In this document: positions 1-61,630 of the stretch, in pieces
Numbering within the stretch: the stretch's first letter is position 1
Layout of the letters: every line of letters starts with the position of its first letter
Assembly: GCA_043813605.1 (NCBI GenBank)
Contig: JBDRKX010000047.1
Span: 53,539-117,538, forward strand
Reading direction: 5' to 3'
DNA length: 64,000 nt
DNA from: Elusimicrobiota bacterium
Lineage (GTDB): Bacteria > CG03 > SLGR01 > JBDRKX01
Position numbers and translations under genes: made by a program
The notes under the pieces: model-generated
The model's input: the letters and a program-made list of their open reading frames with translations, nothing else
What the model was told of the DNA's origin: nothing
Databases searched by the model: none

Positions 1-300
1 GCCACAATACCTTTGAATTTCATCAGTTCGTCCCAGCTAAAAGGTTCTGCGAAATAACCCAAGGTTATATGCGGCATTCTTTCAGTGTGTTTTCCCCACT
101 CATCCCTTCTGGATGCTATAGGGTCCGTATTGTCTTCTGCAAGATATGACTGGACTTCCCAGAAAATACCCATTCCGATATCCCAGTTCAGTCCGCTCAC
201 TTCAGCTTCAAATGAAGGGGAGGCAATATCCGAAGCACGCGCCACTTCATCTTCCTTTATACCGCCCTGGGTAGTCAGGTGCAGTAATTCAGGTGCGACA
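1..300 (-). other. 2H phosphoesterase (LigT/CPDase-like) domain with paired H-x-T-x motifs; truncated by the window edge
   Basis: APELLHLTTQGG (verified at 241-300) and RMPHITLGYF (verified at 41-70). Confidence 0.45.
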
Positions 301-3300
301 AAAACGATCTTTTCCGGGAACGCATATTCAAGTTCTTCCTGGAATTTCCGCATACGGTCTCTTACCGGACCTTCAGGGATAAAATATACTTCAGTTATTC
401 CCTCTTTCTTTGTTTTACCTTTTTCCGGCTGTACAAGCCCGTCTTTTCCTATATACCTCTTCGTCTCTGTCAGATCGCGCTCTGTGATCTCTTTTACCCT
501 GCTGTTTCTCTTCACTATCTCATCATGCGCTTCTTTATAATGATCGTTTCTGACAAACGCTTTAACAGGACCTGCAACAGCACTGGGTATATCCTCTATG
601 ATTTTTTCATCTTCTGTTTCTTCAGCGGGTTTCAGCTCCAATTTAATGAAATTAACCAGGCCTGTTTGCCTGTTCTCATCAAGTGCTTTTTTTGTCTTAT
701 CATAGTTTGCGTTAAAATAGTCAGTAAAATCGTGTTCTTCTTCCTCTACATCTTTTACTATAAGTCCTTTTACTGATGCCCGTTTCACATAACCGTCTCT
801 TACAAGACTGTTTACACTGAAGAAGATCCTGGGTTCAGATACCAAATTTATTACCAGGTTAGATTTTCCGCCGGCAACCGCTTTGTCTATAAGAGATCTC
901 ATTACAGCAGTATGCCACCTGATATCTCTGGCCCAGTCATAGAGCACTATCTCTGTTTCTATAAGCGTGTCCCCGTCTTCTTTCAGGTTGATCTTGCCTA
1001 TAAGATCACCTTTTTCGTCACGGATCCTGTGGTTATATTCGTAATCCCCGCGTTCCGGTGTAAATACAAATCTTTCCGGCATTACTGTTTCTTTAGCGAT
1101 TATACCTAACGGGAGATCGTAGAATTTAGCGATATTACGGTTATAGAATATATGGAATATTACAGCAGCAATAGTGCCGTATACCATACCCACAACAGGT
1201 ACGGAAGCCATTAGCGCTCCGACGCCTATGACAACCGACATCACCGCGGCAAATACCCCGAGTATGATCCTGTCCTGCCAGACAGCTTTCACCGGGTACC
1301 CGTATTTATGGTAATAGACTCCCGGATGGAGAAGAACGAATAAGAACGAGGTAAACGCACCAGAAACGGCAAGGCTGCCGAGCAGGTCGTATCCCGTGAA
1401 CATATTCACAAGATACGATACGAATCCCAATACCCCGGCAAACATCAGTGTCTCGTAAAACGCGAGTTTTGGGGGTTCTTTTGCTACGCGTTCCGGATGC
1501 CAGTACGGGCTGAACGCGGCAGGCACTCCTTTTTTTACAGCTTGTACTTTATCCTTGAGAGTATCATGGAATTCTCTGGGAAAGAGAGCCAGTGCCTGAT
1601 TGATATCATCTCCGTACGTTTTTGCAATATCTTCTGCCAGCCGGTCAAAAGCGCGCACCGATTCTTCAGAATCACCCTGTAGAAACTCTATAATGTTCTC
1701 ATCAAGTCCTTCATTCGCTTTATGCCGTTCATATACAACTTCCAGTCCCAGCAGCCTGTACGCGTTCCTGACACCTATATCTATGTTCTTAAGATTCTTT
1801 TCTGTAAGTTCCGATTCCTGGTTCCTGAACTCAGAAAACTTCTTCATTGCAATGGCTTTGCCGACAAGATCGTCACCGAAAATATTCTCTATAAAATACC
1901 GTATCTGTTTTAATGACGGTTTACGATCAGAAGTAACAGGGATACCCATAGTAACAAGCGGCATTCCTTTATCCGGATCGCTTAAATTGTTAATAAACGA
2001 GAATATCCACCACAGATTAAGTTTCATCATATCTGCATCCAGATACCCGTTTTTATCCAGGAAGGCCGTTAAGGATTTAAACTCAATAGTAGGATCTTTC
2101 TCACCCAGCGTGATAAAAGCAAAATGGTCTTCCGCTACTTTCTTTCGTAAATTCGGGAGCCTGCTCAGGTATTCATCATTAGGCATCTTAATAGATGAAT
2201 TAGTAAGGCCCTTGTAACCGAGATTGGATAAAACAGCCCACATCGATTCGTATACCTTTATCATATGGACAAAATTGTCTATATCCAATTCCAGCCGGTT
2301 TTTATCCCCGTCTCTAACAATCGGCATTGATTTTAGTCCTGCATGCGCATGAAGACTCGCAAATCCGGACTTTACAAAATTCCGGATATTCTTCATTTCA
2401 TTTATGAGCGTATTCCAGTCCTCCACGGTGTTCGTGTGGAAGGTATCTACCATTGACTGTGTTTTAAACTCGAAAAGGCTCCTTGATTCGTCACTCAATT
2501 CCCAGCCGGGTGCAGCTGCACTTTTATTCAGCCTGATATGATTCCAGTATTCATTTTTTATTATCCAGTAATATTTTCCGGGAAGTATATTTTTTGTTTC
2601 CCAGAGATTCCAGTCTGCTTCAGTCAATGGCGGAAGGTTCTCATCTTCAAACACGCCTTCAAGAAAGTCCCTTGAATAGAGGTTCTTTATTTCAGGCTGT
2701 ACATAGAACTCCAATTCAAGCGAGAATGTCGCATCACCCGGTTTCCTGAAAGGAAGCGGTAAGAGGCCCGCATTATCTTTTAAATCGACTTTATCCATTA
2801 AACTGTACAGTTCTTCTGTCTCTTCATCTGAGATGTTCCTGATATTGACCAGATAGAGAAGCAGTTTCTGCTGTTCATTTTCCGGAAGATGAGCCGTTGA
2901 GCTCAGGAGATACTGCTTATGGAGTTCAGGATAATCTTCGGGGATAACTTTTTCTATCGGAGAGGGTTTACGACCGGCCGGTTTGTCTTCGCCGGAACCC
3001 TTTGCCGTTATCATATTGCTAACCGCTTCCTGTTTCGATGAAAGGTCTTTCGGGGTAATTATCTTGGTCTCCAGCATTTCCTTCAGGACAGATAAGCTGG
3101 AAACTGGCTCAATACCAGTTTTCCCAAGGAGGCCGGCAATATGCTGTATATCTTTGCTTTTTATCTGCCCTGTCTTTAAAAGGGCCTCGATTATTGAATA
3201 ACTCTCGTCTATATTTTCATTGTTCTCCGCTATTGAAAGCATATCGTAAACCGCGCCGTTATCTATGAGGTTATCTTTATAAAGGCGGTTTATCGTATCC

Positions 3301-6300
3301 CAGAACTGCGGATTATTCCTGATCCCGTCATATTTTTCGCCCCTGAGCATGTCATGTAACAATTCAACTATCTTGCCTGTTAATGTTTTATTCCCGGAAT
3401 AATCAGCGCCCGTCTCTATTTCGAATGTCCGCCGGACGAGTGTTTCCAGGACGGCTATCCTCTGGTTTAAAAACTCTATTATTTCTTTTGCATCATCATC
3501 CGGATATCCGGCTTCTTTGATAAAAGCAGAAAAATTATTTTTAATTGATTTAAAATAATTTATCGATTCCTCAAGAGCCTGAATATCGTATGAGTCATGG
3601 GATTCAATACGGGAGACCACATTTGAGTAATAATAAAGAAAGTCCGCAAAATTCATGTTCGTATCGAATCCTGCATCGTTGTCAAAGATAACAGGGACAT
3701 CAAACACTCTTATCGAGTTTGAACCATGCTGGTCCCACTTGCCTATCAAAGCATTAAATACGAGTTGCGCGCTTCTGCCTTTCCTGGAGTCACTGTAAAC
3801 GAGTTCTTCCTTTTTATAGTCCTGGGCGACTCTTGTAAGGAAATATCCTTTTTCACTGCTTCCGACATTTTTCAATTTCCTTGATTCTTCGGAAGAGAGC
3901 GATCTTATCTCTACAGTGTCGACTCTGCCTCTGCCCAAAAGATAGCCCAGCAGTTCCCTTTTGTAATCGTTACGGTTTCTATGATTCCCTATCTTATAAT
4001 GCCCCCCGCGCTTCTTTACGAGAAAAACATTGCCTGCTTCATCAATAACAGCCGGAAACCCCCTGGGATTGCAGTTCTGCCCGAATTTCGCTTCAAGTTT
4101 TTTATTGCCGATCATGCTGTAGCTGTGCGGCGTATCAGACCTGACACCTGATTCTGCCAGTACCGTAATCGGCTCCGAATAGAAAGATATCATTTCCCTG
4201 GCGCGTTCTGCGATTGCTTGTGCGGATACTAAAGCTTCTGTTATCTCCTCATTACCTAGCAACGCATCTCTTATTTGATGATCCGGTATAAGTATTTCCC
4301 AAAGTTCATGACTCAATTTCTTCTCATATACCGTGAGATTGCCGCCTTTTTCTTCTGCCATACCGGCGTCTACGATATACGCTCTCATACCAAGCGATCG
4401 GGTCATCCCTATCATTATGTTTGACGGGTTCCATAGATCGTCAACATAAATACCGCTAAAACTCAGATCTCTCACCAACTGCCTGATAAGCTCGAGATTA
4501 TCCGCATTCAGATCTATACGCGGATCATTTATTGAATGGCCGTAAACCCTTTCTGATACTATATATACAAGCTTATCGGTACGGACGATCTCTATCGGAC
4601 GCGGCGCCAATCCTTCCTTGTAGAGCTCTTCGAGCATCCTGTATTCTTCTTTTGCACTGTTAAAGTAGATCTCTTTGTTAATTATTTTGATGACAAGGTC
4701 TTCATTAAAAGGATGTATGAATACAGTACCGTACTCACCGCTTTTTATGAGTTCGGCATTTCTTGATTCACCCGCTATCTCTACTTTAAGTTCGCTCTCT
4801 GCCTTTTCATAGGAAAGTTTAATTTCTCTAGCAGGTTTTGCCATCGCTTTTGCAGGTCTTTCAGCCATAAACTCTTCAACCTGCCAGGCAAGTGCTTCTT
4901 CCCTTTCTTTGTATGTCTTACCGTTTATCTCTTTAATAAAATTACCCAGTCTGCCTTGGAATATTACGTAGAGTGCATCTATGAGACGGTTTTCAGAATA
5001 TTTGCCGGTAGACTGGGAGTATGTGAAGAAATCATACAGGAATTCAGCCCATAATTCTGAATCAAGATTGCTTATGTTTTCCAGTCTACCTGCTATTCGA
5101 GGTGAGATTTCGGCTATTATCTCTTTTATTTCCGGGAATTTATCATCATATTGTTTTATCAGATTAGCGTAATACTCGCGGGGATATTGTATTTTTTCAT
5201 CAGACGCATTATTTATTAATTCCTCAAAAACGCTATCTTCCGGAGGAGCTCTCTCTTCCAGTAGTCTTTCCTCTCGCACTAACTCCAGTATCTCTTTCAT
5301 CACTGTTCTGAATCTATCAGCCGGGTCTACCGGTTTGTGTATTTTTCGCAGAGGAATAGCCACATGAACTATTGCTGAGCCGTTTCTCTGTGCATTCAGC
5401 GCCCAGGCGCCTTCCGCCTTATACGCTTTATCAGCCATCATTGCTGATAAAACAGCCGGATCCCGCACAAGATTCTTAATAAAATCAGCAGAAAATGCAT
5501 ACTCACCGCCGCCTGCCTGTCTGAATCGGCCGTATAACGGGTAAAGTACCAGATCCATCACGCCTGCATCATCATTCCGGTAATCCCTTATATATGAAGA
5601 ACCTACATACTGTTTGTGATCCCTATATACAGGCTCTAAATACGCTTTTACCCATTCGGGATCGATATTCTCTATATCGCCGTCAAATGTGACCCATGCA
5701 TCAGCTTTCAGGAGATTTACAATCTCCCAACCCAGCATCTGTCCCCAGAATTTTCCTTTGATCGCTCCCGGCTTGATCCATGATACCAGTTCGACATTAT
5801 CCACATTGTCTATTGAACTTCTGTCTATTTGCGACAATGTCTGTTTACTTGGTTTTTCTCCGCTAAGGACGATCATAGCCCTTTTCCCGGGATAATATTC
5901 AGCAAGTCCTTCCAATACCGTATCTATACCATGGTTTATCAACTCCAGGGGTTCTTTATTGTAATTAAGCTGTATGACAATGTCCGCTTTATCAATATCC
6001 ACCACTTTTCTCAATTGTTTTTGGCGGAATCTGCTGAATGTTCTTAATTTGTCTTTATAGTCTGAGAATCTACCCGCTAACTCCTTAGTATTGATCAGCA
6101 TTTCTTCTTCCGGGATCTTTCTGGGAAACAGGCCGGTAAAGAACCTTTTTATTCTCTGGTTTATGGACGCGAATAATGAAACTTCTTCTTTTTCCAGGAT
6201 ATATTCAGGTTCTATTTTTTCAAGTGCATCAACAGATTCTAATTCCACATAATCTTCGGCATCCACATAAAGCGGATTAGATGCAGTAAATTCCGAGAGC

Positions 6301-9300
6301 CTTCCTTTATATACAGGATATCCGGTATCTTCGGCATCACCTGCTTCTGCCCGTTTAACATATACTGCAACTTTGTCCAGCGGTATTTCCCACTTTATAA
6401 TATCGAATATCTGTTTTCTCAATGAGACCATTGCCGGATGCATGTTCTCAAAATGTTCTATTCCGTTAATCCTGATAGATATCAGTTTATCTCCGAATAT
6501 AGGCTCACCGGCTGCATCCAGCCCGAGTGAACCGTTTGAATCGACTATCTTATCATCCAACTGGCTGAATCCTATCAATTTCGCAATATACCTGGCTAAT
6601 CCTGACTCGAAATACCTGTGGAATTGTGCCAGGTAATCAGTCTCCTGTTTAGCACAGCTTATAGAAATCAAATACGGAAAATTCGGATGTTTGCTGGCTT
6701 TGCGCATCATATCCTGCCACAACTGAAGGTCCTTTGATCCCGGCCACAACTGTAATACAAGGTTGGTTCTGCCTGTAAAAGCCTTATATAATTTCCAGAA
6801 CAGGTACTGCCCGGTTAATGTAAGATAGTTTTTCGCGCCCCTGCTGTATCCGTTGAGAGCCGCATTCTGAATAAGTCCCGTCGCAAGTCCCGATTTAAAC
6901 TCATCCGGTTTCAGTTCACCATTTTCATCAAAGAACATAGTCGAGATCATATATGTGGTGAACAGGCCGCCCACGCTTATTCCCATCGGGATTATAATCT
7001 TCTTGTCCGCGAACAGGCCGTCGCCATTGTTCAGATGATCGTATGCCTGCCAGATATGTTCTGCTATGTTTTCCCGCAGGGTCTTTTTTATCGTCTTGAA
7101 TATCTGATCAGGATATGAATGTCCCGCAATGAGTACCGAATGGTTCTTAATAAGATCCAAGCCTGTTCCGCTTATATAGTATATACCGAAAAGCCTGTCA
7201 TAAGAGTATCTCTTGATCCACCCGTGTATAGCATCGAGCTCTATCTTTCCCTGTGTAAAGATTATCGCGGATTCAGTTCCGTCATCAAACCATAATTCAA
7301 GGTCCTCGTCTTCAACCTCTCTTTTCTGTCGAGGGGGAAAAACACTTGCAAATATTTTTTTGATACGGCTGGGTTTGGCAATATCGACCGGGTGGGTATA
7401 TGCAATGATATAATCTTCTACATACTGGACTGTCTTATTGAACGCTTCTATATCTCCGCGGGCATAATACTGCTCCAGGAACAATAGAATACGCTGCACC
7501 TTTGGATCCTCTTTCATTTCAGCATCTTCCACTTTCTTGATGATATCATTGACCTTCCTGCCCAGCATCTTCTTCCTGGCAAAAGTCAGCCAATGCCCGG
7601 GAGCTACAAACCTGAACGTCTTATGCCAAATCTCAACCTGTTTTTCTTCAATATTTACGAAATCGAGCTCATTATACTTCTTGGCGTTGTCCATGGCGTC
7701 CATGAACTGCCTTATTACCTGAGCCGTGCCCCTGTACCTTACATTATCCCCCTGGACATCTTTACCGACAATTACATTATCGTATTCCGAAACATATTGC
7801 TTCATTCCGAGAAAAACAGAGAGCAATGATTCGTCTTCAATATCCCACAGGAAACTGTCTGCCGTAGAATCACCCATTGCCAGTATCATACCTACGGTAT
7901 GTTTTCTCCTGATGAAATCCCTGACGCCGTCAGACTTGTTATAGAGGCTCATCTTCATAAAAGCATCACCGAAACTCGGATAGTACTCGTTTTTGGGAAG
8001 TTCTATTCCTCTTGCCGAAAGTATGCTCAATGCCTCGTTGAGCGCCATCTTTGTGTCTATACTGTCCAGTTTATTGTCATTATCAAGTATTACCAGCTCC
8101 GAATCGAATACCTGTATTTCCGTACTTGAGTATCTTTTTATAGCATTCTTGAATATCTGGTTGACATCGGTATAATTACCCGCTTCTTCCAATGCCGTGA
8201 CAGCTTTTTCAAACACATCCTGTCTGATGATCACATTATTAAACAGTTTCAGGTAAGCGATCGTGAACGCTCTTGCAATTTCAAACTGCATTTTAGGATC
8301 GAATGTTTTTTTTGTGTCTTCAGAAGTCTTTCTTTCAACTATTTTCTCTTTTCCGTTATATGTAAAAGAGGTATTCTGTGCGCCTGAAAGAGATATGATC
8401 TCAAGGTTCTCCATATACTTTTCAGTAACATTCTTTTTCATCAACTCCAGTATAGGCTTAATAACACGGGTATTAACCGCTTCTTTTTCAAATCGGATCT
8501 GCTTTTTGATGTGTTTTTCAGAATCCGGTGAATCGTATATCTTAACAGTCTTGATCTCTTCCGCCTGTGTACCGCTCACAAGAAGCACTTTTATTCCTGC
8601 TTCAAGTGCTTCTACGACAATTTTAAGGTTATCTCCTTCAAGCGGAGAAAGCTCGTCACGGGTAAGCGTCCGGTTAATATCAAGGACGATAGTCCTCAGA
8701 TCTACTTGTCTATCGGATTTTATCAGATTATCCAGCGCACTGGTTTTTTCGGTTATCGGTTCTTTACCCACGATCAACCGGCGATATTTTTTGGCCTGAA
8801 TAAATCTTACCCATGGACTTTCGGATATCTTATTAAAATACAATTCCTCGTCGATATCTGTGGCAGAAGGGATAATATTTACGGCACCGTCATCCACATA
8901 ATAGGCTTTCAGTTCACCGTTGTTTATCTTCCCTATGACTATATTATCCGGTTTCCAGCCGAAATCTTTCACATTTACATTGTTATCTATCAGCCCTCTT
9001 ATCAATCTACGTACCAGCTCCATTTCTTCCGTTGTCATCGAGCCGGCTTTTATATTCAATGTCTTTCCTACAACCCGCTCTGAGACAATATACTTGAAAG
9101 AACCGGCAAAACCTTTACTGATTATTCCGGGAGACAATCCCAATCCGGACAGTTTTTCAAGCATCCTTACTTCTTCAATAAAAGTGTTTTCAATACTGTC
9201 TTCGACATCCCACCTGCCTATTTTTATTACCCTGTCCGGATAGAACGGATGGACAAAAGCGCCTCTTGAAATATGTTCCGCCTCTTTTCTGATACCTTCC

Positions 9301-12300
9301 ATTTCTATAATCAGCCGGTTTTGACTGTCATCATATTGAAGAACGGGTTCTTCGGCAGGTTTTTCTGCAACTATTGCAAGCGGTATCTTTGGAAGGAAAT
9401 CGAATCTAGTGGCTATATGCCTGTTATAGAAATGTACAGATATGTTTCCTATGGAATGTAATAGCGCTAATATTCCGGCTACAGCTATTGCCGGAGTAAT
9501 CCCCTGACTTAAAAGAGTCAGGGCTACCGGTACAGCCATAGCCATCGAATGGACCGCAAGGATTATCCGGTCCAGCCGCGTAGCTTTTGCGGGTGGAGCG
9601 TTTATATCATAATACACCCGCCTGTGGGCGATGAGGAAGATGATCGTAGCAATAGAACCTGCGCCTAATGATGCCAGTACATTGTTGATATCAAAAGTGC
9701 TTCCAAGTAACGCCAGCCCGCCTGCAACAAATCCGAGCCCGTATGTCTCTGCGGCTTCGATCAATCTCCGGCCGATTATACTATGCACCCATCTTTCGGG
9801 CCAGTACGGACTGATTGCCAGCGGAGGTTTCCCGTCATATATCACTTCTTGAGAAAGCGTTTCCAGCCGCCGGGCTTCAAGGTATTCAAGTAATGTATGC
9901 CGTAACATAGATACTCTTTCAGCAAGGTCGACAGTAGTCTTGTTCAACTCGGCTATCAGAAACTTGACCTTATCTATATCCAGCCCTTCCCCGTTTTCTA
10001 TCCAATAATCAGAAAGGTCCCTGTTATCGATCACATTGTCTACTTCTCCCTTTATGACCTGTTCGAACGAGGTGAGTGTTTCCCTGATACTTCTCTTCCT
10101 GCCTGTCTCTGTAAGCCCGCGGTACATACGACGCGACAACCTTATCATACGGTCTTCTTCGAGATCATCAAAGTCCGCCTGGATAAAGAATTTCCTCACA
10201 CTTATACCTTCGGGTATTATCTCATCCATTTTCTTGCTTATCGCAAAAACGCCTTCAGCTATTACCAGTTTCTGTCCAGGCTGGAGTTTGACTGTTTTAT
10301 ATCCCACCCGTTTTCTCAGATTCCGGTCGTAATCAGGTATTTGGGTTTCTTTTCCTGCGAGAAGATCGCTGATATTCTTTTCAAGAAGTCCAAAATCATA
10401 AGGCCCGTTTTCAGTTGATTCAGCCACCAGGACAAACCTGGGATCGTTTTTATCAAAATTATATATACCCATACCTATTAACAGGTTACCCTCAGCTATA
10501 TCTTCGACCATCATGGTTTTCCCCGCGCCGGACAGGCCCCCGAGCAGTACAAGGCTGCCGTCAGGCATATCATCCGTAAGCCGCTTGAGTAAACCATCTT
10601 CATACGATATCTTTTGCGGTATTTTTGCAGCAGGTTTTACTTCTTCAGCTTCAGCAGTTTTTTCTGGAACTGCAGGATATTCTTTCCCTTCAGGCGTTCC
10701 CATAGTAACAAGTACTTTATGCCGTTTCCCGTCATTGACGAGGAGAATACCTTCTGCCGTTTCTATCCAGACTCCGTCCATTTCAATTTTTCCGATACCG
10801 GAGGAAACTACATCAGGATTTATCACTTCGATTTCATAGACAGATTTACCATATCTTTTTAAAACCTTAAACCCTTTTGCTCCCCACTCTTCGGGAAGCA
10901 CCGGATCGATAAACAGCCTGCTGCCGTCCCTGAATTTTAATCCCAGCATACTTTCCACCATTATCCTGAAGATCCAGCCGGCAGATCCCGTATACCCTGT
11001 CCATCCCGCCACGCCCTCGGGACTTATATCAGCAGCGGCGACATACGGCTCGCCCCTATAGTTTCTGTCCTTTGCATGTTCCGCAGGATTCAGAACCCTG
11101 TATACTTTCCATAATAGATCAGCGTATTTCCTTTGATCCTTGGAGCCGGTATCCTGACGCGCGATTATTGAAAGGGCCTGCACCATCCATACTATACCAT
11201 GGGTATATTGCCCGCCGTTTTCCCTGTCGCCGGGGTAATATTTTCCAAGATGCCCTTCCGGAAAATCTTCATTTCCGTTCACAGGTCTATCAAAAAGCCT
11301 TATGATATTTAGATTTTCATCATATAGTTCATCAAGCGCTGTCATAAATGCTTTTTTGGCAAGCTTTTCACCGACCGCACCGGATATTACGGACCAGGCT
11401 TGAGGTAAAGCAAATAGTTTTCTTATCCCGATACCCTTATCAGTAAAAGCCCTGATAAACCATCTCTTTCTCAGTCCTTTTTTAGCCAGTGCATATTTTT
11501 CTATATTTTTCGAGAGTTCACTAGCTCTTGATTTATATTCTCCGGCAGTTTCACTATCGCCTTTCTTTTCTGCCAGCGCGGCAAAATCCATCAGGGTCTT
11601 ATACAGAAAAAATGCAAGCCAGACACTTTCTCCTTTGCCTTTGATTCCTACTGCATCCAGCCCGTCGTTCCAGTCACCGGATCCTATCAAAGGAAGTCCG
11701 TGTTCCCCCATCCTTTTATTGATGACAAAGTCAATGGACTTTTTCGCGTGTCCATACACTGAAGCCGTCTGCTCTGGATCATCCGAAGAAATAAATTGCG
11801 TGACATAGTCTTTTTCATCCGCATTAAGAAGCCTGCCGCTCAGATACGGTATTTTCTCATCAAGGATATCCATATCACCCGTTACATCGACATAGTGCGC
11901 CAGGCCGTATGACAGCCACAGAAGATTATCCGATATACGTGTTCTTATTCCCAGGCTGACTTCCTTGCCATTTTCATTTATTCCGTAATCATGCCACCAG
12001 TGAAGGACATCTCCTTCAGGGAACTGCCTGGCCGCACACTTTATAAGATGTTCACGGGCCCTCTTGATATCTTCAGGAGTATTTGATGAAGCCAATGTCA
12101 GCACTGTCTGCAACTGATCCCTGAAACCAAAGGCACCTCCGGGCTGATAGAAACCGGTCTTTCCGAGATAATGCCATACAACTGCCTGATAACGCATCCA
12201 ATCTATCATCTTATTGAAGTTTTTATCAGGTGTTTCAACAACAAGATCATTCAGATAAGAATTCCAATTTCTCTGCCCTTTATTAAAAGTCTCACTAATA

Positions 12301-48300: not shown

Positions 48301-51300
48301 CTCCGTGAATATACATAATCAAGAAGGTTTGTGTGCACATATATCGAGTCCGTACCTGAATGACCAAGTACTCTTCCTTCTGCAAACTCATCACCGCTTG
48401 AGAGAAGAAGGACCAGCCTACGGCTGCTAAGTGTCTCTGATTCCGATTCTACTGACAGTTCTAGAAAAAGTTTCAGTTTTTCTTTGAGTTTATCAGGGCC
48501 TTTACGCAGGATATATAACTCCAGCTCTCTTTCAGCAAGTCTGCGGGCATCTTCATCCTTAAAATAGAACGACTCCGTAAGATTTGCGGCTGTTTTCGCA
48601 TAATCATCGCTGAACATATGATCGATATCTGACGACAGGATACCGGGTATAAGCGCAATCGCCCTGCCAGAAGTTATTGCGTCCAGTACTGCCCCGTCAA
48701 CATCTTCCTGTATTACGCCTTTTTTCATAAGGTTCTTTTCTGTACCCTGTGCCAACTGTCTCTGCTTGAAGAGTTCCACCCGATTCAAAGCCTTTCTGAT
48801 ACTGCTCCCCGCGCCGACGCCTATTTTCCTCTCTTTTCTCATAGACTCTTTCAGTCCTTTTAAACGGCTCGTAAGTATCTTGCGTATATCTCTGAGTTCC
48901 GGATGTGTTATCAATTCTTTATCAGCCAGTACCGATTCGATCTTTTGTACAAGTATTTCCGCTTTCCTGTCCCTATAAGTGATCTTATCAAGGAACCCTG
49001 TCGTTGCTTCGCCCGGACGCATATTCCTTGTCACACTCAGGAACCGGTTTATTACTTCCCCGTCCGGAGTATGTCCTGACCATAACCATTCTCCCCTAAG
49101 ATCAGTCACATCCAGGTAAGGCATGAATTTGCCCAGATAACGCTGATACATCTGGAAAGCTTTCATAAAGTCCTTTGTCCCTGTTTCCATAATACCGTCA
49201 TACCCCACAACATAGAATTCTCCTTTGATCTGGAGTAAAAGAGCCGGATGAAGCGTGTTCTCTGACCCGAGTTCGGTGTCCGCTGACCTGCGGACTTTTA
49301 TGATATATCCCTCGACATCAGGTATGACATCTACTATATCCGCAATAAAATCGAGCATATGGTAATACAGGGCCATATACCTGGGATTCAGTGAAGTAAT
49401 ATCGTCTATAGCCCACTGTATATACCTTTCCAGATTTTCTTTTCTGTACTGTCCCAGATTCTCATACCATAAGTTAAACTCTTCCTCTGATCTCAATTGG
49501 GCTATTTCATCAAGTATTTTCTGTATCTCCTGGTCGGCATAATGTGCGCCCTTTGGTAAAAGAGCAAGAAATTCACGGGTAAATATCCTGTCTTTGAAAA
49601 GGTTATAAATATCCTTATATACGCCTTCGTGTTTCTTATAATGGTCTATTAGCTTCATTGCAAAATTAACATACGGCGCTATATCTTCGCCATGTGCATC
49701 AAGGAATATTGCCTTCCAGTCATCTGAGAGTATCTCATCAATAATATCATTGAGCTGCAGATAAGCCTCAAGGAGCCGGCGCTGTTCATCGCTAAGACTT
49801 TCGAGCCAGCCCTGGAAATCGAAGGACATATCCGCTCCCAGCGTTCCGGATATCTGTTCTATGATATCCGGAACCAGAGCCAGTATATCTGATATATCCG
49901 CATCTGGTAGAACTCCACTTGCTTCGTCAGCCATATCCTGCATTCCGTTCTGAAGATATACAGCAAGCCACATTGCCTGACTACCGGTCATGTTATCTTT
50001 TACAAAACTTATAAGTTCTTCCTTTGAACTGATGTCAAGCGCCCCTATATCCGTATCCGCCTTTATACTGTCAAATACGCTGCCCATATGACCGGCAAAT
50101 CCGGATATAACTCTATCATGATCAAACTTAAACCCTTTAAATTTGTTTAATAAATAGTCAACAAGCCATTTGGCATGTTCTTCACCAAGTTCTTTTGCCC
50201 AGTCTTTAAATTCATCCAATGATAACCTGTTGATCTTGTCTTCTATATCGTTTATAAATCTTTCCCGGTCAGCAGGGCTCAGCCATACTTCTTCAGGTTC
50301 TTCTTTGGCATAACTCATCCTCGGCCTTTCTACACGAGTCGCGACTTCCCGCATCGGTTTTTTTGCGGGAAATGAAAACCTTATCTGAAAACCTATCCTG
50401 TGCTCCCTGTCCGCGTCCGCAGCCTGTGGATATACTTTTTCGATACTGCTTCCAAAAAGCGTCGTTTCAATATTAGTAGACATATATCTGGCAAGTCCTC
50501 TTATTCCTCCGAGGACTTCAGTCTCGTCGGCAAACATCGGGTGCTCGCTGTCACGCAGCCTGTATTCAGCAAGAAGACCCAGTTTATCAAATCCGGGTAT
50601 AAAAGAGTCCCCCATAATACCGCCCTCAAGCCTGAGCTCGTCATATACGGGAGTATCTTCATATTCTATCTTTGTCGAAAGATCATAAGCATAAGCCTTA
50701 CCTTCGTAACCGAACCCTAATGTCCTGCTCTCCGGGAAGAGTTCAGTATCCTCCAGAGGATCAAAATCTATAAGTTCCAGGACATTACTGATAAACAGTC
50801 TTTCAGTTTCAACTGCCCAGAGTTTGAGAGTATCATCAGTAGTAGGCCTGTATACAAACATAATACCCTTTTCAAGATTGGCATATCCCGAGTGAAATCC
50901 TAAAAGTTGTGTATCTCCTGAATGGTAAGCGAAACTGTTTACAGCCGCTCCTACTGCCAGCGAAAAATTTCTCCAGTCTAGCGGAATACCGGTTTTTAAA
51001 GAGCCGCTCAACACATTAAGCTCTTCCTGTTCAAACGGACTTTTCAGATTAAGGTCTATATGAGAAGCTCCCAGATCAAAATCAAAATTTAAATAATGAA
51101 ATATACTGCCGTCAAAACTGACTTCCACCATACCGTACGGACTTTCCAGTATATCGCTTTCTCCCTCAGGCCCGGCAAGACCGCCTATTCTGAAAATAAT
51201 ATCGCCTTCCTCAAGATAAAATACATTTCTACCTAAAATATTAAGATTGCGCACACTTAAAGTAGGATCGAGATAAGCGTTCATCCCGTAAGGGCCAAGA

Positions 51301-54300
51301 TAGAATTCCGAACCTATATCGAATTCCGGGAAAGGGATATCCAGTCTGGCATCTATGTTAAAACCACCGGAAGCGAATGGAGAACCAACAGGCCATAATA
51401 CCATTGCCGTTATTATTATTATGCTCAGGAACCTCCTCACAGCCGGCATTATCTTTTTTGTAAATATCCATTTCAGTACCCGAAGGTTTTCAGGTATTTG
51501 TTTGGCTTCCCGGGCAAGCACCTTTTTCCAGAATCTGCTGACTATCCTGAAATCCTCAGGGCTCAGGTTTTCTATATGCCTGCCGTAGATTATGTCGTTA
51601 TCTTCATGTTCCGATATCAACCGGAGAGCGGTAATATCATCTTCTGTTTGGACAGCTATCAGAGCATTGAAATGATAATGGATCGAATTTGTGGTTTTAC
51701 CGCCATGGCCAAGGACTTTTCCTTTTGCGAAATGGCCTTTGGGATTCAAATGAACAACGAGCGTACGCTGTTGGAGCGTTTCCTGTGAAGTCTTTCTGTC
51801 TTCTCCTCTTAAAAGTCTGACCTTGTTCTTAAGTTTACTGGCAAGTACTGTGTAGAAGGGTTTCCTTACGGTTCCTATAAGGACCTTGAGCCGGTCCCTC
51901 AATATATTTATGTCCGAAGTCTCCATCCTTGCCAAGTGCCGTTTGAGTTCCTGCATGGACCTGATCCTGGCCCTGTCGTCCTGATCAAATCCTTTTGTCA
52001 GGTTATACGCCAGCATCTTTGGATCAGCAAACCATCTATCTATATCTTTCGCCTTTATGCCCGCAGGAATAGCTACTGCCCAGCCGTACTTAACATTGTT
52101 CCGTATATGTTTTTCGAGCCATTTAAGTTTTACTCCCTTTTTCATAAGGTTCTTGCCGGTACCGCCTTCCTCAGCTTTCTCGAGCTTTATCTTCTCTATT
52201 TCAGCGGCATCTCTTTTTACTGTTATCCTCTCATTTGCCCATCGAAGAGCTTCTGCCCAGAATCTCTGAGATTTACTGCCATTATAGAGCCCTATATGCC
52301 CGGCGTTAATTATTCTTCGGTAAAGGTTTTCCGGTGGTGTGCTCACTTTTTCCGCCATAGCAAGACTCTGTCCCTGCCGGTTCTGCATAAATTCAAATAT
52401 TCCCCTGAGCTGATCTTTGCCTGATGTTTTAATAAACGGATCATCCGATGAAAGAAACTCATCAAATGCAATAGTGAACATCCTGTCTTCAACGACAGCT
52501 ATCTTGCCGGGCTCCCTGTTAACATTGCCTTCACCGTCATCAGAGATGAGTTTATTGCGTTTTAGAAAATCCCATGTAGTATCTGCTATCTCTGCCTTAT
52601 TTACTGTCGCAGGCGGTGTTACATCGTCTTTTGTGCCTTCGAACATAATGACCGGACATTTTATCCTGGAAAGGTCTACCAGTTTCATCTCATGACCTAT
52701 TTGTATCTCCATCTCGCCTTTATAGAGCTGGTTACCCTTGAATATCTTGTCAATACATTCCAGGTACCAGAGTGACAGGTTGTTAGTTGTATAGAACCAT
52801 TTGATAAAATGTTCCGCCCGGGCAACATATTTCTCGTCATCGATATTATCTACCAGGTTCTGCCAGAAATCGATCTTCTTTGATTTACCTCCGTCAGGAC
52901 CCATGTTAAGGAATCCTTCAAGCTGGCTCTCGCCATCATAGATATTCTCACGGCCGAACCCGTGTACCAGCCAGTTAAAAAAATCTTCCGGAGCTTCTTT
53001 TGATACCCTCGTTATATCGTTATCTCCGAGTGTAGCGTGAAGCGGAGTGCCGGCAATATACAAGGCTTCGACTTTTTCCGGATATAATGCGGCTACTATT
53101 GCCGCTACCCAGCCTCCCTGACAGAGACCCGTTAACTGAACTTTACCGCCAACAGCGTCTATTGACTCGACTACATTGTGTACCATGTCGGTAATCAGCT
53201 GGATATCGTCCGGAGTCGCGCTCTTCCAGTCTATAGAATATGTAGGCTGGCCTTCGTTCTGGAATGTCTGAACAATACTCTTACCGTCAGCATCATCTGC
53301 TATTGTAGAGCGATGACCGGAATTCGGCGGTACTATCAGCATCGGGATCCGGCTCATATCTACACTGTGGTCTTCTGATACGGTGAAATCCCTCAGCATG
53401 AAACTGGATTTATCTATTATTACTTCGTTATCCGTAAACCATTCGGGCTCCTTAAATTCCACCCTATTAAGAAACTCAAGAGCTTTTTTTACTTTACGGA
53501 AATAATCGTTATACGGTGCCCAGAACCCTACCCATGGTTCATATACCGACTGGCGCCATAACCTTTGCAGATCTTTCGATTCTTTGGTCCAGGGAATAAA
53601 GTATTCTACAAAAGGAAATCTGGAAAAGAACCTGCCGAGATTCCTGCGGCCGGCTTTATACATATCCTCATTTTCTTTGCGAAGACGGGCAGCTTCAACA
53701 GCTTTTTCTTCATCTGTCAGCTTGATGCCCGCCTCGACTTTGGCCCAGAGCGGTCTAACCAGGGTATCAAACAGGTCTTGCCGGATATCCTTTTCGTGAT
53801 GGCCTCTTATAATATCACCGTCTTCATGTTCGAGTATAAGGGAAAGCGTGGTCTTTTCATATTCCGTTTCAACCGCATCGAGCATGTTTATGTGCAGATA
53901 TATGGATTCCCGGCCGGCGCCGCCGTGGCCGAGTATACGCCCTTCCGAGAAATGGTTTCCTTCAGAAAGCAGAACTACAAGCCTGCGGTTTTTAAGAGTA
54001 TCCTGTTCAGTCTTCTGTCTTGAATGAAGAAGCGTCCGCAACCGGTCTTTCAAATGCTCGATGTCAGAACGCGCCAGGTACTCCGTCAGAGCTTCTTCTG
54101 CCCTCTTACGCGCCCAGTCAAATTCATAGTCCATTGAATCAAGCAGGTTCCGGGCTGTTTTGTTCAAATCGTCCGCAAAGAGCGATTCTATGTCTGTCGC
54201 TGTAAGTCTTGCAGAAAGGCTTATTGCAAGTCCTCTGGTTATACTGTCTTCTATTATCTTATCTGCTTCTTCCGCAGTAACACCGGATTTCATCAGGTTC

Positions 54301-57300
54301 TTGCCGGTACCCAATGCTTTTGAGATCTCTGTCTTTTCTTTTTCTATGACTTCAGGAATTTTGCGAGGAACCTTAACAGGAATTTTACGAGGGATTTCAG
54401 GGGAAACAGCTCCTGCTGCGCGGAGAGCGAGGTTTTTTAGTACATCTTTGAATCCGGATATTATCTCTACAGGTATGTTAATAACACCTGTCGCAACAGA
54501 GTCAGGATTCATCAGTTTTGCGTTACGGATCAAAACCTGATCTTTATGAACAGGGGTATTTGTAAGGAGGTACCCGTTAGTTTTTATTCCTGCCGCATTG
54601 AGAAGAGTCTGTACACTCCTGATACTCTTACCGTCATCAGTCACATAGTCATCCAGGTGCCCCTGTCCGCAGAAGACAGCGATTCTTGCCGAAGGATCCT
54701 TATTGTGAAGTTTCTTTATCTCCCTGGCAAAATACCTGTTACGGCCGTTAGTGATTAACCTTTCTCTTATTCTGGGTATTGCAGCAATAGCATCCGTATC
54801 AAAGAAATGGTTTAATCCGGGTATCATCTTCTCAACTATTTTCCAGAAAAGCATAAGCGGCATATCCATATTTACTATTTTTATACCGGCGGCGCTTGCC
54901 GCTTCATATATCAATCGATAGAATTCAGGGCCGGATTCCCATATTCTCTGCTCACTGAAACCATGTCCCTCAAAGCAGAGGTACTTAACTCCTGATTCAT
55001 TTAAATCCTCCATAATACTCATCAGGTACATCGGGTGAGTCATGTTCTTATGATAGTCGCCGAATATCACTACGCGGGCATCATCTATAAGTTTTTTTAC
55101 ATCAGCGCTCTCTATTTCGGTATTCCTGTAGAAATCCGCCGCTTCAGGATCGGCACCTTTAAAGAGTTTTTCAAAGAGCAATACCCAGTTAACCCTCTCA
55201 CTTGCCTGCACCATATCATAGAATCCCCGGAAACTGCCGGATAAGAGATTCTCTTTCTCTGTTGTTGAAAGACCTGCTAACTTTTGTGTCAGTTTACCGA
55301 AAAAGATCAGTCGGGAAAGCCGAAGCGCTGAATTGGAACTCCTGTAATCATATATTGACCCGCTCCAGATATCCGTTATCTTTTTTATATCTTCTGTTTT
55401 TAACGAAGGCAGCCTGTCTATTATCTCCTGAAGAGAAGGGTCCAGTTCAGCCAGTTCTTTAAGGGAATCATTGATTATCCTGTAATCACCGGCAGGATTT
55501 ATAGCTGTCTCGACCATATCAGAGATGACTTTTACAGGTATTGTCACCGGACCAACCGTATCTATCAGCCTGTCTTTGATAACAGGCAGTATCCTGTCAG
55601 CCGATATCTCTTCTTTTTCAATACCCGGTATCTCTTCTTGTGGAACGATATCAGCTTTAATAGCTTTTACGATGATCATACCAATGCCTGTTGCTGTCCC
55701 GTCAAGCACACTCTTGAAAAAGTCACTATCAATAAACTGATCGAGAGCCGTCACATCACCTCTCTGTCTCTGTTCGATATTTACATTATTCAGGAATCCG
55801 GAATCCCGCGATTTCCTCACGACAAACGGTATAACAGGATTCTTTATGGCACGGAATTCTGCCTTCAGTTTGCCTTCCCCGGCAGATTTCTCAAGTAACG
55901 CGTTCACTACATCCGTTATCCTTCCTTTCTGTTTCCCCGGTATCCCCCTGAACTTAGGATTGATCATGATCCTGTCAATTATAAGCATATCAGGATCATC
56001 AACCAGGTTCACGCCGCCTATATCGATATTTTCCGCATTGTATATCCTGTGATTATAAAGCCCGGCCGCCATAGGGACGAACCTGAGACCGTAAGTCTCG
56101 ACTATAAATCCTTTCTCAGATAATTTAACTATCTTTTCAGGATATAATCCCTCTTCTTTTTTTATAATTTCCTGCAGCTCAAACAACGGAATAGAGTCAA
56201 TATGTTTCTTTTTGAGGTGCTCCTTGAACCCTTCCGGCGTCCCGTCAGGTTCAATACCATAATAATTGTATCTTTCCGTCACATAATCTATCAGCAATTT
56301 TAAAAATAGAGTTTTTCTCGCAAAACCTTCAGGCAGTTCATCTTCCTGGGCTTTCATTATGACTGACTTGTGTATGACAATGACATTTTTATCATCTATT
56401 CTTGCTATTTCTGCCAATCCCAAAGACTCTTCTTCCTTGAAGATCTCAGTCACAAGTTCTTTTTTACTGATCTTTACTTCAAAATCGGTCAGTTCAAAGA
56501 ACATCGACATAAACAGATGCAGCCCTTCAGTACCCAGCTCTCCGGTACTCATGAGATCATCCATATCGTCAAAAAGAGAGCTCGTGGTCTTACCTGCCGT
56601 AACAGGTATAGAAATAGAAGCTACTGCTTCTTCATGATGTTCAAGAAATTTGTCGATAAACAGGGAGATATTGTTTATATCGGTCCTTTTCACTCCAGCA
56701 GATTCTATCGTATTGTAAAAATCTTTAAGGATAACCGGATGCTCTGCCAGCGGCCGGCTCATCAGTTCCGTCATGATATAGATCATATCTTCTTCGACAG
56801 GATATTTCTCGACAAGCTCGATTTGAGCAGTAGTAAACGCTACCAGCTGTTCTAATCCGAGGTTGAGAGCAATAAATTCGACGATTTTTAAGTCATTACG
56901 GTCAATAAGGTTTTTCCTGAAAAGTATGTTAAGTATATCTATGATCCGCTCAAAACCGGGAGCAGTAAAAGTACCCGGCATATCATCCGGATAAGACTCA
57001 TATAAACCTTTTTTTATTATTTCGTGAATGATCTTTAGATCTTTGTCCTGGATATAGTTTTCTCTTGCAAGATTGTTAAGTATAAGAAACGTGCGGTAAT
57101 CTTTTATAAACAATGCGTATATAGAGTTCTTTTTTTGCCTTTCTATGACATAATCCATCATAAGTGTTCCATTACCCTCAAAATCTCTGCCTCTTATCAT
57201 CTCATAGGTCATCTCTGTATCAGAATCAAGGTTTTTAAGGTTCTGCATGATAAATGAGACTTTTTCTTTGAGTTCATTACCCGTATAACCACTGTCAGCG

Positions 57301-60300
57301 GTCATTTTCCTTATATCATCTTCTTTCAATTCCTTAAACTCAATGATCGATTTTTTTATTTCTTCTATACTCAAATCTTTATATAATTTGCTCGGCCTGT
57401 TCTCCCATGTGTTGAACAGGAATTCATTAAAACCCATCTGCGTGTCAAAAGCCACATCATGATCGAATCCGACAGGTACACCGTCAACCATAACCATATT
57501 GCTGTCATGCGGATCCCATTTGCGTATCAGGACATTGAATACAAACATAGCCGCTGCCGCTTTGTCGTAATCATTGTGTACGAATTCTCTGTATCCGGCG
57601 CCAACTGTCCTCGTAAGATAGAATCCTTCTTCACTGCTCCCTATCCCGAATTGTCTCAGATTTTCTGCTTCATCATTACTTATCGTCCTTATCTCCGTCG
57701 TATTTACCCTGCCTTTTCCGATAAGGTAAGCGAGCATCTCTCTCCTGTAGTCGTTCTTGTTCTTGTGATATCCATGGCCGCCGGACTTGAGCTTTTTTAC
57801 TATAAAGTTTTTATTGCCTTCATTTACCTGAAACTCCCAGGTGCCGTCCTCGATCGGATTTTTGCCGCCATAGACATATCTCGGTTCAGGTTTCTCTGCC
57901 GGTACCTCTTCTTTAAACTCTTTATCTATCTTCTTCAGGATTTCTGCCGCCGCCTGACTGATATTCCCGTTTTCTTCATAGAACCCCCGCAGATACTGTC
58001 TAATATAAGCCTGCTCTTCAGGATTTACGCTGTCGTGATACTGGATCATCCTGTCCGTTTCGCCGGACACAAGTATTCCGGCTAATTCCTCTTTATACGG
58101 ATTCGCTATTGTCTCTTTCAAACCCCGGGCATCAGAGAAAAGCAGGGCGATTCTAGGGTCACCTTTTAAAATAAGTTTAGACAGACTGTCGCCTATATCC
58201 TGAGAATAGATCTTTTTATTAAGTTTTATATCTATACTGCCGAGAGTGCTGTTCATGCCGAATATGACTGCCGGGGTACCCATTTCAGCCATCTGAGACG
58301 CGTCCACATGGTCAGAAGCATGAATGATCTCTGTTACCCGCCTGATACCGGGAATTACATATCCCGGTATGCGGTCAGGATGGTGATGGTAGAATACCGC
58401 AAGTTTTATGGAAGCAGGGATCTTTATTCCTTCTGTTTCCAGCTCTTTTTCGATGATAGCTACCGAATCGAGCGCATGGCCCAGAACATCTGTACCGCTT
58501 TCGTATTCCCTGTAATTCTTTCTGGTCTTTGATATATCATGTATCAAGGCAGCTATCTCAAGCGCAGTCTTCTCCTGTCCGGTGATACCCAGTTCTTCTG
58601 ATATTATTGAAGAGTATTCCCTCACACGCTCGATATGGCGATGCCTGTGTTCTATACTCCCGAAAAGCGCGCGGATCTTTTCGGATATTACGGAGACATC
58701 TCCGTTTATGACAAACCGTTCATTTTCAGGTGTATTATTATATTCGGCTATCACTTCGGCGATCCTGGGTATTATATCCGGATTTATTCCGCTCGATGTC
58801 ATCATCCTGGATATCTGCGCGATCTCTTCTTTTATCGGATCAGCTATCTCTGCCGGCTCCACTACTTCAACCGGCGGTTGTTCAACAGTTTCCGGTTCTT
58901 TTTCAGTTTTTTCAGGTAAAATCTGTGGGCGCTGTATTACACGGGCAGGTCTTTGCAGAAACTGTCTGTAAAGAAAATAGCTCATCCCTATACCGCCTAT
59001 CACTCCGGTTGCAACAGCGGAAACTGCCATAGCTGAAGCCGCCAGAGCCCATACAAGTACTGCTGAAACAGCTACTATACCGAGCGCGATCAGGACATTC
59101 CTGTATTTTGCAGTAAATCCCGGTTTTCTTCTTTTCTTTGTAAGATCACGGATATCCGCCGGGCGGGCGGAGACAGGTGTCTCTTCTATTTCACCTTTTT
59201 CTATCTGTACAAGAAGTTTTTTCAACCGTTCTGATTCCGTATATGTTAATCCTTTCTCACCCATACCTATCTCGGCATTATAGCCCTGGAAGAGTCTGAC
59301 AGTCTGGTCGCCCGACTCTATCAGATCACTCAGTATTTCTTCTATCCGCGTGGTTTCAGCAGATATTTCTGAACCTAGAGCAGGAAACATATCAGAATTC
59401 CTCATAATAGCCGTAACCGCATACGGATTGTATATATACAGTCCGTCGGATGTTTCCAGCAGTTTAATATCGTTGCCTGTACTCTCTATCAGGGTTTTTA
59501 ATGCTGTTTTCTCTGAAGCGGTTATCTCCTTCGAAACATCTACCCTGCTGAATGGCCTGGTTTCAGGCGAAATCACCGTTATCATGGCATCTGGATTGAG
59601 GACAATTTGTGTTTCCTGGTCTTTCTGTGCATTTTGCAGTTTGGTGAATGCTTCTCCGGCATCGTGCATTATTTTCTCTTCAAGGAGCCCTTCTGCTACC
59701 CGGACAGGTATTATCTCTACATCATTTTCACCTTTGACACCTACCGTAAACACCTCATTACCCAGGCTCAACGGTAAAATGGTTTTCCCGTTATAATCGA
59801 CAAATTCGTTCAGATGGAAGATGAATTTATCTTTTTCTCCTGCAATCGCCCTGTTTTTAGTGCGCATTTTATTGAACCTGTTCCACCATTTGAACAGAAA
59901 ATCGTCAACCTTATCGGCAAATCCGGCACTCTCATACCCGGATTCCTTCAGTTCCTGTCTTATAAAAGCGCCCAAACCCCTGACAACAACGCGTTTTTTG
60001 AACCATTCCATCGGCTGGAACGAAGAAACTGCAAGTTCTCTCATAAAAGCTTCTTCAAAACTCAGTTGCTCACCACCCCTGAGAAGCGCATAATACCTGC
60101 TCCGGTCCTCTTCGGTATATGCGGTTACCCTCGGTTTGATCACGGTATATGAAATCCCCTCTTTTTTAAGCTGTTCGCTGATACCGTATGAATGAAAACC
60201 ACCGGCTATCATGGCCAGTATCTTATCCTTGTCGTCAGAACTGCTCACAAATTTCTCTACAAAAGTCTCATCCCTTTTGCATGCCGTATCGTAAAAGACC

Positions 60301-61574: not shown

Positions 61575-61591
61575 TTCTGTTTAAAATACAT

Positions 61592-61630
61592 AAAAAAAAC
61601 CCGCACTCTGTTCATCTTAAAACAAAGTGC
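61592..61630 (-). terminator. Rho-independent terminator read on the minus strand: 8-bp GC-rich stem CCCGCACT/AGTGCGGG, 18-nt loop, followed by an 8-T tract
   Basis: + strand aaaaaaaacccgcactctgttcatcttaaaacaaagtgcgggttt. On the + strand only TTT follows the stem, so it is effectively unidirectional. It ends 18 nt before the giant ORF start codon. Confidence 0.7.

Follow-up and report, generated by a model that had tools for sequence, protein, structure and literature searches.

A stop-free minus-strand reading frame of at least 20,524 codons in an Elusimicrobiota contig and the membrane-anchored multi-enzyme protein it is predicted to encode

Results

The giant open reading frame

The DNA analysed here is a stretch of 64,000 nucleotides (hereafter the window) from contig JBDRKX010000047.1 of an Elusimicrobiota bacterium (assembly GCA_043813605.1, positions 53,539 to 117,538), most of which is occupied by one minus-strand open reading frame (ORF). 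An earlier reading of the bare sequence (the original prediction) had proposed a single ORF of at least 61.5 kb at this place, and a six-frame scan of the window bears this out: over positions 1..61580 (61,580 nt) the minus-strand frame contains no stop codon at all. The giant ORF (3..61574) begins with an ATG at 61574, two codons downstream of an in-frame TAA exactly as proposed, and runs through 20,524 stop-free codons to position 3, where it is still open at the window edge. An in-frame stop between 3 and 61571, the finding that the original prediction had named as decisive against it, was looked for and is not present. The remaining five frames carry 592-1726 stops each, with the longest open runs ranging from 237 to 1716 nt. 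Based on the stop counts of the two neighbouring minus-strand frames, in which about 8.1% of codons are stops, the probability of 20,526 stop-free codons arising by chance is about 10^-750. The idea of separate genes sharing one frame was rejected as stops are absent between them, and stop-codon reassignment was rejected since all three stop codons are missing in frame, which makes the genetic code irrelevant. The gene was absent from the supplied ORF track, as had been noticed, because the lister omits ORFs that run off the ends of the source.

The composition by codon position (GC content of about 0.52, 0.34 and 0.43 at positions 1, 2 and 3, i.e. GC1, GC2 and GC3, and a purine content of about 0.67 at position 1) is alike in all 21 blocks of 1000 codons, while the off-frames of the same span show 50-108 stops per block. 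Such uniform statistics, together with the off-frame stops, indicate that the whole span is coding in the giant-ORF frame. All Pfam and PDB homologies, which span aa ~980 to ~17,200, were found in this frame, and homologues of the first ~700 aa align from the M1-K2 start, which confirms the start codon. None of the plus-strand ORFs over the same stretch is longer than 289 aa, and Pfam gave no match for the six longest, in agreement with their earlier description as antisense shadows. We conclude, on the strength of the sequence, that the window holds one real, undivided bacterial gene for a protein of at least 20,524 aa.

An assembly or sequencing artefact, with a chimeric contig fusing separate genes in one frame or with stops lost to consensus errors, is very improbable. 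It could draw on the lack of an independent copy of the locus in public collections (an exact 59-mer gave no match among genome or metagenome contigs, nor did exact-protein look-ups of the upstream 183-aa ORF and of P0002, P0127 and P0136), on one 3-kb island of deviating GC3 (see below) and on the lack of a collinear full-length orthologue. Against it stand the chance value given above, the uniform codon statistics and the absence of repeats that might seed chimeras: no tandem repeats of note were found in the DNA, and its self-similarity does not exceed 71% identity or 176 nt, which leaves nothing to invite repeat-driven misassembly. Protein self-comparison revealed internal paralogues, but at 30-46% identity these are ancient duplications and not assembly repeats. 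Moreover, the GC3 island starts inside a single enzyme whose N- and C-terminal domains are contiguous and in frame, and relatives with the same N-terminal domain also have ORFs that leave their contigs or loci.

Domain content of the encoded protein

The protein was annotated by Pfam scans in two registers of 1000-aa tiles, by phmmer searches against PDB sequences and with NCBIfam. More than 20 distinct enzyme families and about 30 different enzyme-like modules were recognised in one chain, so that the multi-enzyme character ascribed to it earlier is supported by domain matches along its length. At least 20 distinct Pfam families are present and none of them dominates; they include HD, DUF3141, NERD, GDE_N/C, GH77, LOG, Metallophos, Rce1-like, Bac_transf, YrbL, Glucosamine_iso, GH130, HAD, Glycoamylase, GH94 and PRK. 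All coordinates given below refer to the minus strand of the window.

Behind the N-terminal (head) domain, which is treated separately, the first recognisable module is a predicted HD phosphohydrolase (aa 979-1090, 58305..58640; Pfam E 1e-7). It is followed by an alpha/beta hydrolase of the DUF3141 or PHB-depolymerase-like type (aa 2725-2990, 52605..53402; Pfam E 7e-20) and by two tandem NERD-containing modules (aa 4899-5423 and 5467-6019, 43518..46880), which were delimited by Pfam and self-comparison. A glycogen debranching enzyme (GDE_N and GDE_C) combined with a 4-alpha-glucanotransferase (amylomaltase) of glycoside hydrolase (GH) family GH77 occupies aa 6696-~8000 (37575..41489; Pfam, PDB). 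This region overlaps a compositional island (~37575-40727, aa ~6950-8000), in which GC3 rises from about 0.30-0.43 to 0.57-0.66; the island begins between GDE_N and GDE_C of the one enzyme and continues through GH77. Recent horizontal transfer was considered as its origin, but the best matches, spread over many phyla, reach only 42-44% identity and point to no donor.

Further along the chain are two LOG domains (cytokinin riboside 5'-monophosphate phosphoribohydrolase-like; aa 9251-9651, 32622..33824; Pfam, PDB) and a calcineurin-like metallophosphoesterase (aa 10601-10800, 29175..29774; Pfam), with a second metallophosphatase at aa 13700-13811. Between the two lies a segment identified by Pfam, PDB and hydropathy (aa 11362-11865, 25980..27491), in which an Rce1-like CAAX intramembrane protease with transmembrane (TM) helices (~aa 11440-11536) is followed by a PglC/WbaP-type phosphoglycosyl transferase (aa 11683-11865). 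A kinase-like module of the YrbL type is present in three copies (Pfam, self-comparison), the first at aa 12392-12639 (23658..24401) and the others starting at aa 17387 (8703-9416) and aa 18901 (4191-4874). The glucosamine-6-phosphate deaminase NagB (aa 12962-13203, 21966..22691) matches 2bkv with an E value of 9e-46. Next come two tandem GH130-like modules with 46% mutual identity (aa 13974-14927, 16794..19655; Pfam), a HAD phosphatase (aa 14952-15149, 16128..16721; Pfam), a block resembling the C-terminal two-thirds of cyclic beta-1,2-glucan synthase, with the cyclase, two GH94 supersandwich domains and the GH94 catalytic domain (aa 15379-16903, 10866..15440; E 4e-99 to 8rf9), and a uridine-kinase/PRK-like P-loop module (aa 17004-17160, 10095..10565, reaching aa 17184 in the domain map; Pfam, PDB, NCBIfam).

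The self-comparison also disclosed old internal duplications, among them three module families without usable Pfam (E<=1) or NCBIfam matches, which we named A, B and C. Module A, for which no Pfam match was found, has its first copy at aa 1250-1471 (57162..57827) and its second, 40% identical (E 1e-44), near the other end of the ORF (3381-4046). Module B is weakly zincin-like, carries the motif EHEDxD..G.H and occurs three times (aa 2410-2615 at 53730..54347, and at 51513-52199 and 48171-48752), whereas module C has two copies (aa 8254-8479 at 36138..36815, and 30726-31394) that share an invariant HEKGH, i.e. the HExxH motif of zincins. The highest copy number of any module in the giant ORF is three, and no linker-like low-complexity segments were seen in the protein.

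Membrane helices and composition

A hydropathy scan yielded about 20-23 candidate membrane helices in seven clusters, mostly with even numbers of helices (aa 7-25, 827-868, 3375-3400, 4476-4704, 11362-11710, 17299-17380 and 20042-20143). This density, about 20 helices per 20 thousand aa (kAA), agrees with the mean of 22 that has been published for proteins reaching 10 kAA or more. The N-terminus, MKLINSIYIKFTSWMLVLSFVFVYVFSDYTYAA..., is a hydrophobic helix (aa 7-25, 61500..61556) that is kept in the homologues and may act as a signal peptide or a signal anchor. Several clusters are clear hairpins or four-helix blocks whose outer flanks are rich in lysine and arginine (K/R), for instance the hairpin at aa 827-868 (58971..59096), which is K/R-rich on both sides. 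A four-helix block (aa 17251-17405, 9360..9824) has a paralogous block at aa 20018-20162 (1089-1523) by self-comparison. Within the cluster at aa 4476-4704 (47463..48149) an HERVH (HExxH) motif (aa 4643-4647, window 47634-47648) directly follows a membrane helix, an arrangement reminiscent of membrane-embedded metalloproteases.

Cysteine is extremely rare in the giant protein (34 of 20,524 residues, 0.17%, as compared with 1.52% in stand-alone GDE homologues). Long proteins that share its head contain 0.14-0.46%, and cysteine depletion is thus a trait of the family.

The head domain and its relatives

The head (aa 26-640, 59655..61499) is a domain of about 600 aa with an alpha/beta core like that of the TIKI/TraB/ChaN/erythromycin-esterase superfamily and a large helical insert. 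Its core contains a parallel sheet and matches solved members of the superfamily (RRSP, Bcr135, EreC, ChaN, HopBA1), with which it also shares the His/Glu site. Residues D75-x-H77, E105 and H461 (the latter in GGFH) are invariant in seven sequences, and E105 is placed 28 residues after His77, as in RRSP and Bcr135 (PMC6254334). By sequence, the catalytic constellation of two His and two Glu is retained, except that the first acidic residue is Asp in the window head and not Glu. The head further differs from the superfamily in a helical insert of about 260 aa and an extra C-terminal beta domain. Neither Pfam (aa 1-1000) nor a profile search against PDB sequences gave a relevant match. Considering its TIKI/erythromycin-esterase-type fold and the retained His/Glu site, the head is probably an active hydrolase.

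A possible second TIKI/ChaN-like domain was noticed at ~aa 2165-2291 (window ~54702-55082). Its Pfam match to ChaN (Cofac_haem_bdg) is weak (E 1e-3, below the cutoff) and its hhalign match to the head, which reproduces the D-x-H ... EG motif, is of low probability; we leave it as a hint.

The first ~700 aa are the only stretch of the giant protein with clear relatives. The closest of these share the head only, at 30-45% identity. A word-indexed search returned six matches, the best three of which are 36-45% identical, annotated as 'partial' and labelled Elusimicrobiota; all eight of the named closest relatives come from metagenome-assembled genomes (MAGs) with that label, and more distant ones from MAGs labelled Auribacterota, Omnitrophica, 'Clostridia' and 'Deltaproteobacteria'. 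Going by the labels of homologues at 35-45% identity, the organism is probably affiliated with Elusimicrobiota. Scanning in full with HMMER and a profile of the head extended the collection to 8,002 cluster representatives (2,053 at E<=1e-30), in which the head lies nearly always at residues 1-~550. It opens thousands of other, mostly long, ORFs. The best 148 representatives have a median length of 1,664 aa; 18 of them reach at least 4,000 aa and the longest has 6,530 aa. Of eight genome loci, seven have a head-bearing ORF that leaves the 3' end of the contig or locus, as do 25 of 80 loci from metagenomes (in 14 of these 25 the full 10 kb downstream are open), and the remaining head-bearing ORFs in DNA collections are mostly stand-alone genes of 450-620 aa.

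No collinear full-length orthologue of the giant ORF was found among the relatives. Beyond the head they are unrelated to the window protein, apart from two that each share one or two shuffled modules. As the head is kept and the remainder is not, the group can be described as a 'conserved head, free cargo' family. One Elusimicrobiota-labelled MAG contains at least four different long, contig-truncated ORFs with this head (P0001, P0128, P0130 and P0132, i.e. ACFLTD_04655, ACFLTD_04285, ACFLTD_04125 and ACFLTD_02145), which means that a genome can carry several family members. Another head-bearing ORF (L004:9974-21883, JAUVLC010000008.1) extends over at least 3,970 aa without ending inside its locus. 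It encodes TPR repeats and, some 1,000 aa behind its start, a SecA_DEAD-like domain, which connects the head family with the giant proteins described for Omnitrophota that bear SecA.

The region upstream of the giant gene

A terminator-like structure, consisting of a 17-bp GC-rich hairpin and a T-run (61597..61636), ends about 15 nt before the giant ATG and overlaps the stop of a 183-aa ORF. Being so near the start codon, it leaves the gene without a Shine-Dalgarno sequence and without space for a promoter. At the related locus L002 (2275-2318) this hairpin recurs with one base pair changed from C-G to T-A in a compensatory manner, and L009 (~1110-1165) has an equivalent hairpin of different sequence, while the more distant loci L003-L005 have an AGGAGG Shine-Dalgarno sequence in its place. 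It is possible that the hairpin acts as a gate and that the giant gene is expressed by read-through. An Rfam scan of the leader and elsewhere in the window found no known RNA.

The 183-aa ORF (61612..62163) encodes a predicted membrane protein without a Pfam match. Its homologues occupy the same position before head-bearing ORFs at L002 (41% identity) and L009 (21% identity), and it is a possible accessory partner. Upstream of it, an ORF of at least 572 aa (62284..63999) is open at the window edge and contains a fourth copy of module B, with 35-41% identity to aa 2425-2612, 3141-3353 and 4279-4463 of the giant protein. This ORF has a homologue at L001, where it likewise precedes the giant-ORF homologue, and the module B copy in the window ORF hints at an exchange between stand-alone genes and modules of the giant gene. 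There is no marker gene in the window.

It is conceivable, if rather unlikely, that the head defines a large, hitherto unannotated family of mosaic polyproteins in which a conserved hydrolase head is joined to freely shuffled enzyme cargo, covering everything from stand-alone forms of about 500 aa to ORFs of at least 20 kAA, with several such genes per genome in Elusimicrobiota-labelled MAGs. If the head and the internal zincin-like modules process the chain, this would represent a bacterial polyprotein strategy distinct from that of the SecA/C39-type giants of Omnitrophota, and the conserved hairpin before the start would then serve as a gate that limits the expression of a very costly gene.

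Discussion

A membrane-anchored multi-enzyme protein

Based on these observations, we suggest that the ORF is a genuine single gene and that its product belongs to a recently recognised class found in uncultivated bacteria, large or giant mosaic proteins that combine many enzymes and are anchored in the membrane, a reading to which we assign a probability of roughly 0.75. Hairpins of helices would hold the polypeptide at the cytoplasmic membrane, with most catalytic modules remaining on the cytoplasmic face. This placement follows from the types of modules, which use phosphosugars, phosphate and nucleotides: NagB uses glucosamine-6-phosphate, GH94 and GH130 are families of phosphorylases, and the LOG, uridine-kinase-like and kinase-like modules would use nucleotides, while GDE and GH77 would act on glycogen and maltodextrin, and PglC would draw its undecaprenyl phosphate from the membrane's inner face. 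Considering also the even-numbered, K/R-flanked helix clusters, a cytoplasm-facing chain is the most economical model. It would be stapled at intervals to the inner membrane, so that glucan, amino-sugar and nucleotide-turnover activities would be fixed there in 1:1 stoichiometry.

The same features bear on a different proposal, in which the protein is a surface-exposed or secreted effector that is exported via its signal peptide and attaches to and digests the envelope of a host or prey, with its glycoside hydrolases outside the cell. The resemblance of the N-terminus to a signal peptide, the depletion of cysteine, as is often seen in exported proteins, and the abundance of carbohydrate-active modules would suit such a role, which the literature has hypothesised for giant proteins of Omnitrophota. 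We consider it improbable, since NagB, GH94/GH130, LOG, the kinases and PglC are of cytoplasmic type and need glucosamine-6-phosphate, phosphate, nucleotides, ATP or undecaprenyl phosphate. In addition, the Pfam tile scans contained no dockerin, lectin, adhesin or peptidoglycan-hydrolase domains, the K/R-flanked hairpins suggest that large blocks remain inside, and no secretion-system genes are visible in the 2.4-kb flank.

In the cytoplasm-facing model the head, the five zincin-like modules (three copies of B and two with HExxH) and the Rce1-like module may trim or process the polyprotein or its partners. Such a large number of protease-like modules, including HERVH in a TM cluster, makes processing a serious and non-exclusive alternative. 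In its full form, the chain would be a self-processing polyprotein, a precursor cut into many separate enzymes, as are viral polyproteins and the MARTX toxins, and the candidate cutters would be the TIKI-like head, the two copies of module C, the three copies of module B (with the copy encoded upstream as a further candidate) and the Rce1-like module. In part this agrees with a membrane-anchored multi-enzyme protein, and we regard it as a minority explanation, somewhat better placed than export.

Several points weigh against the reading as a cytoplasm-facing, membrane-anchored protein headed by a TIKI-like domain. Expression as one polypeptide and the correctness of the assembly are both judged from the nucleotide sequence. 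Foldseek gave no significant match for the fold of the head, so that its assignment to the TIKI superfamily fails the significance thresholds of Foldseek as well as of Pfam. The topology is derived from a Kyte-Doolittle hydropathy scan, which is a crude method, and the lone strong helix at aa 3375-3393 would reverse the sidedness unless weak helices are counted too. The N-terminal helix resembles a Sec signal peptide with the c-region YAA|Q; if it acted as one, the head would lie outside the cell, which conflicts with the K/R flanks of the hairpin at aa 827-868. We estimate from the domain map that about 60% of the chain length has no recognisable domain, and SecA_DEAD and C39, the hallmarks of the Omnitrophota giants, were not found by the Pfam tiles in the part of the gene inside the window. 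Finally, the last 1,200 aa (aa 19325-20524, window 3-3602) have no homologue among 5.8 billion proteins; that they are real coding sequence is indicated by the paralogues they hold of modules located 18,000 aa upstream.

The window adds a well-resolved stretch of 20.5 kAA from a lineage apparently outside Omnitrophota, with an identifiable cargo that points to cytoplasmic-type glucan, amino-sugar and nucleotide metabolism, not to cell-wall lysis. Genes so large probe how far transcription, translation, membrane insertion and folding can be stretched in uncultivated bacteria of very small size. The conserved N-terminal TIKI-like head, common to thousands of long ORFs, offers a testable handle, and if it, or the metalloprotease-like modules inside the protein, should process the chain, one could see giant genes as polyproteins and not as single machines.

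Comparison with known systems

Among the few other bacterial genes exceeding 30 kb are those of non-ribosomal peptide synthetase (NRPS) and polyketide synthase (PKS) megasynthases and of giant repetitive adhesins. Neither class accommodates the window gene: carrier, condensation, ketosynthase (KS) and acyltransferase (AT) domains are absent from its Pfam matches, and there are no immunoglobulin (Ig), cadherin or RTX repeats and no tandem repeats. A giant built on dockerins or a tandem-repeat scaffold was likewise rejected, given the lack of dockerin/TSP3 and of tandem DNA repeats and the maximum copy number of three. MARTX toxins resemble the window protein in being very large single chains with an array of unrelated catalytic modules, and they include a TIKI-family module, RRSP (PMC6254334). 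However, no RTX or other repeat, cysteine-protease-domain or toxin-effector Pfam match was found in the giant ORF, whose cargo consists of housekeeping-type carbohydrate and nucleotide enzymes interspersed with many TM hairpins. A further known system is the cyclic beta-1,2-glucan synthase Cgs/NdvB (8rf9 and 8rf0), with whose cyclase and GH94 domains aa 15,379-16,903 align (E 4e-99 and 1.6e-65). In contrast to Cgs, the homology starts at about Cgs residue 1014, with no match to residues 1-1000; the N-terminal glycosyltransferase (GT) domain GT84 and its six TM helices were not found, and the Cgs-like part is one of about 30 modules.

The best counterparts are the giant genes of uncultivated lineages, to which the original prediction had already likened this one. 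Omnitrophota, Elusimicrobiota and other phyla of the PVC group are reported to contain proteins of 10,000 aa or more frequently; among the PVC phyla those above 30,000 aa were seen only in Omnitrophota (bioRxiv 10.1101/2023.11.21.568195). Elusimicrobiota are also noted to be enriched in proteins longer than 5,000 aa (PMC11573180). The earlier description of the gene as extremely unusual for bacteria goes too far, considering these reports and the 3,650 such proteins in a single corpus (see below). West-Roberts et al. (2023) distinguished 'large' (at least 10,000 aa) and 'giant' (at least 30,000 aa) proteins with numerous TM regions, most of which contain a divergent SecA_DEAD helicase domain, and described the Archaeovorins, with GT5/GT1, methyltransferases, SAM methylases, NUDIX, glycosyl hydrolases and peptidases as a consistent set (bioRxiv 10.1101/2023.11.21.568195). 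With its 20,524 stop-free codons the window protein is 'large' in this sense, and about 20-23 helices were counted in it by the crude Kyte-Doolittle scan. SecA_DEAD gave no match at E<=0.01 in any 1000-aa or offset segment and could lie beyond the window; from the Archaeovorin set, GH and peptidase-like modules are present in the Pfam results, and GT5/GT1, methyltransferase and NUDIX were not found.

A 2026 corpus compiled by Nielsen and Lui lists 3,650 proteins that reach 10 kAA or more, most of them unique in sequence, among which 'multi-enzyme metabolic cluster' architectures and TM-only, cytoplasm-facing topologies were described; the host of this Class 1 architecture is the class Gorgyraeia of Omnitrophota (bioRxiv 10.64898/2026.06.07.730766). 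With at least 20 distinct Pfam families, the window protein has the multi-enzyme content of Class 1. Compared with the giants of Omnitrophota, the window gene has Elusimicrobiota-labelled closest named relatives and a TIKI-like head, and lacks SecA_DEAD, C39/S8, GT5/GT1, methyltransferase, NUDIX and dockerin domains in the 20,524 aa seen. It shares with the Omnitrophota/PVC giants a single ORF of tens of kb, many enzyme Pfam families with a content of sugar-metabolism, HAD, HD and kinase domains, TM helices at a density of roughly one in 1,000 aa, an N-terminus that Pfam does not match, a unique sequence with similarity at the level of architecture only, and an open end, such genes usually being truncated by contig ends. 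The cytoplasm-facing model matches the cluster architecture and TM-only topology of Nielsen and Lui, and fits less well with the extracellular digestion of cell walls proposed by West-Roberts et al. Giant genes are rare but have already been described in uncultivated bacteria, and the window gene is a new, sequence-orphan example of them and not a new kind.

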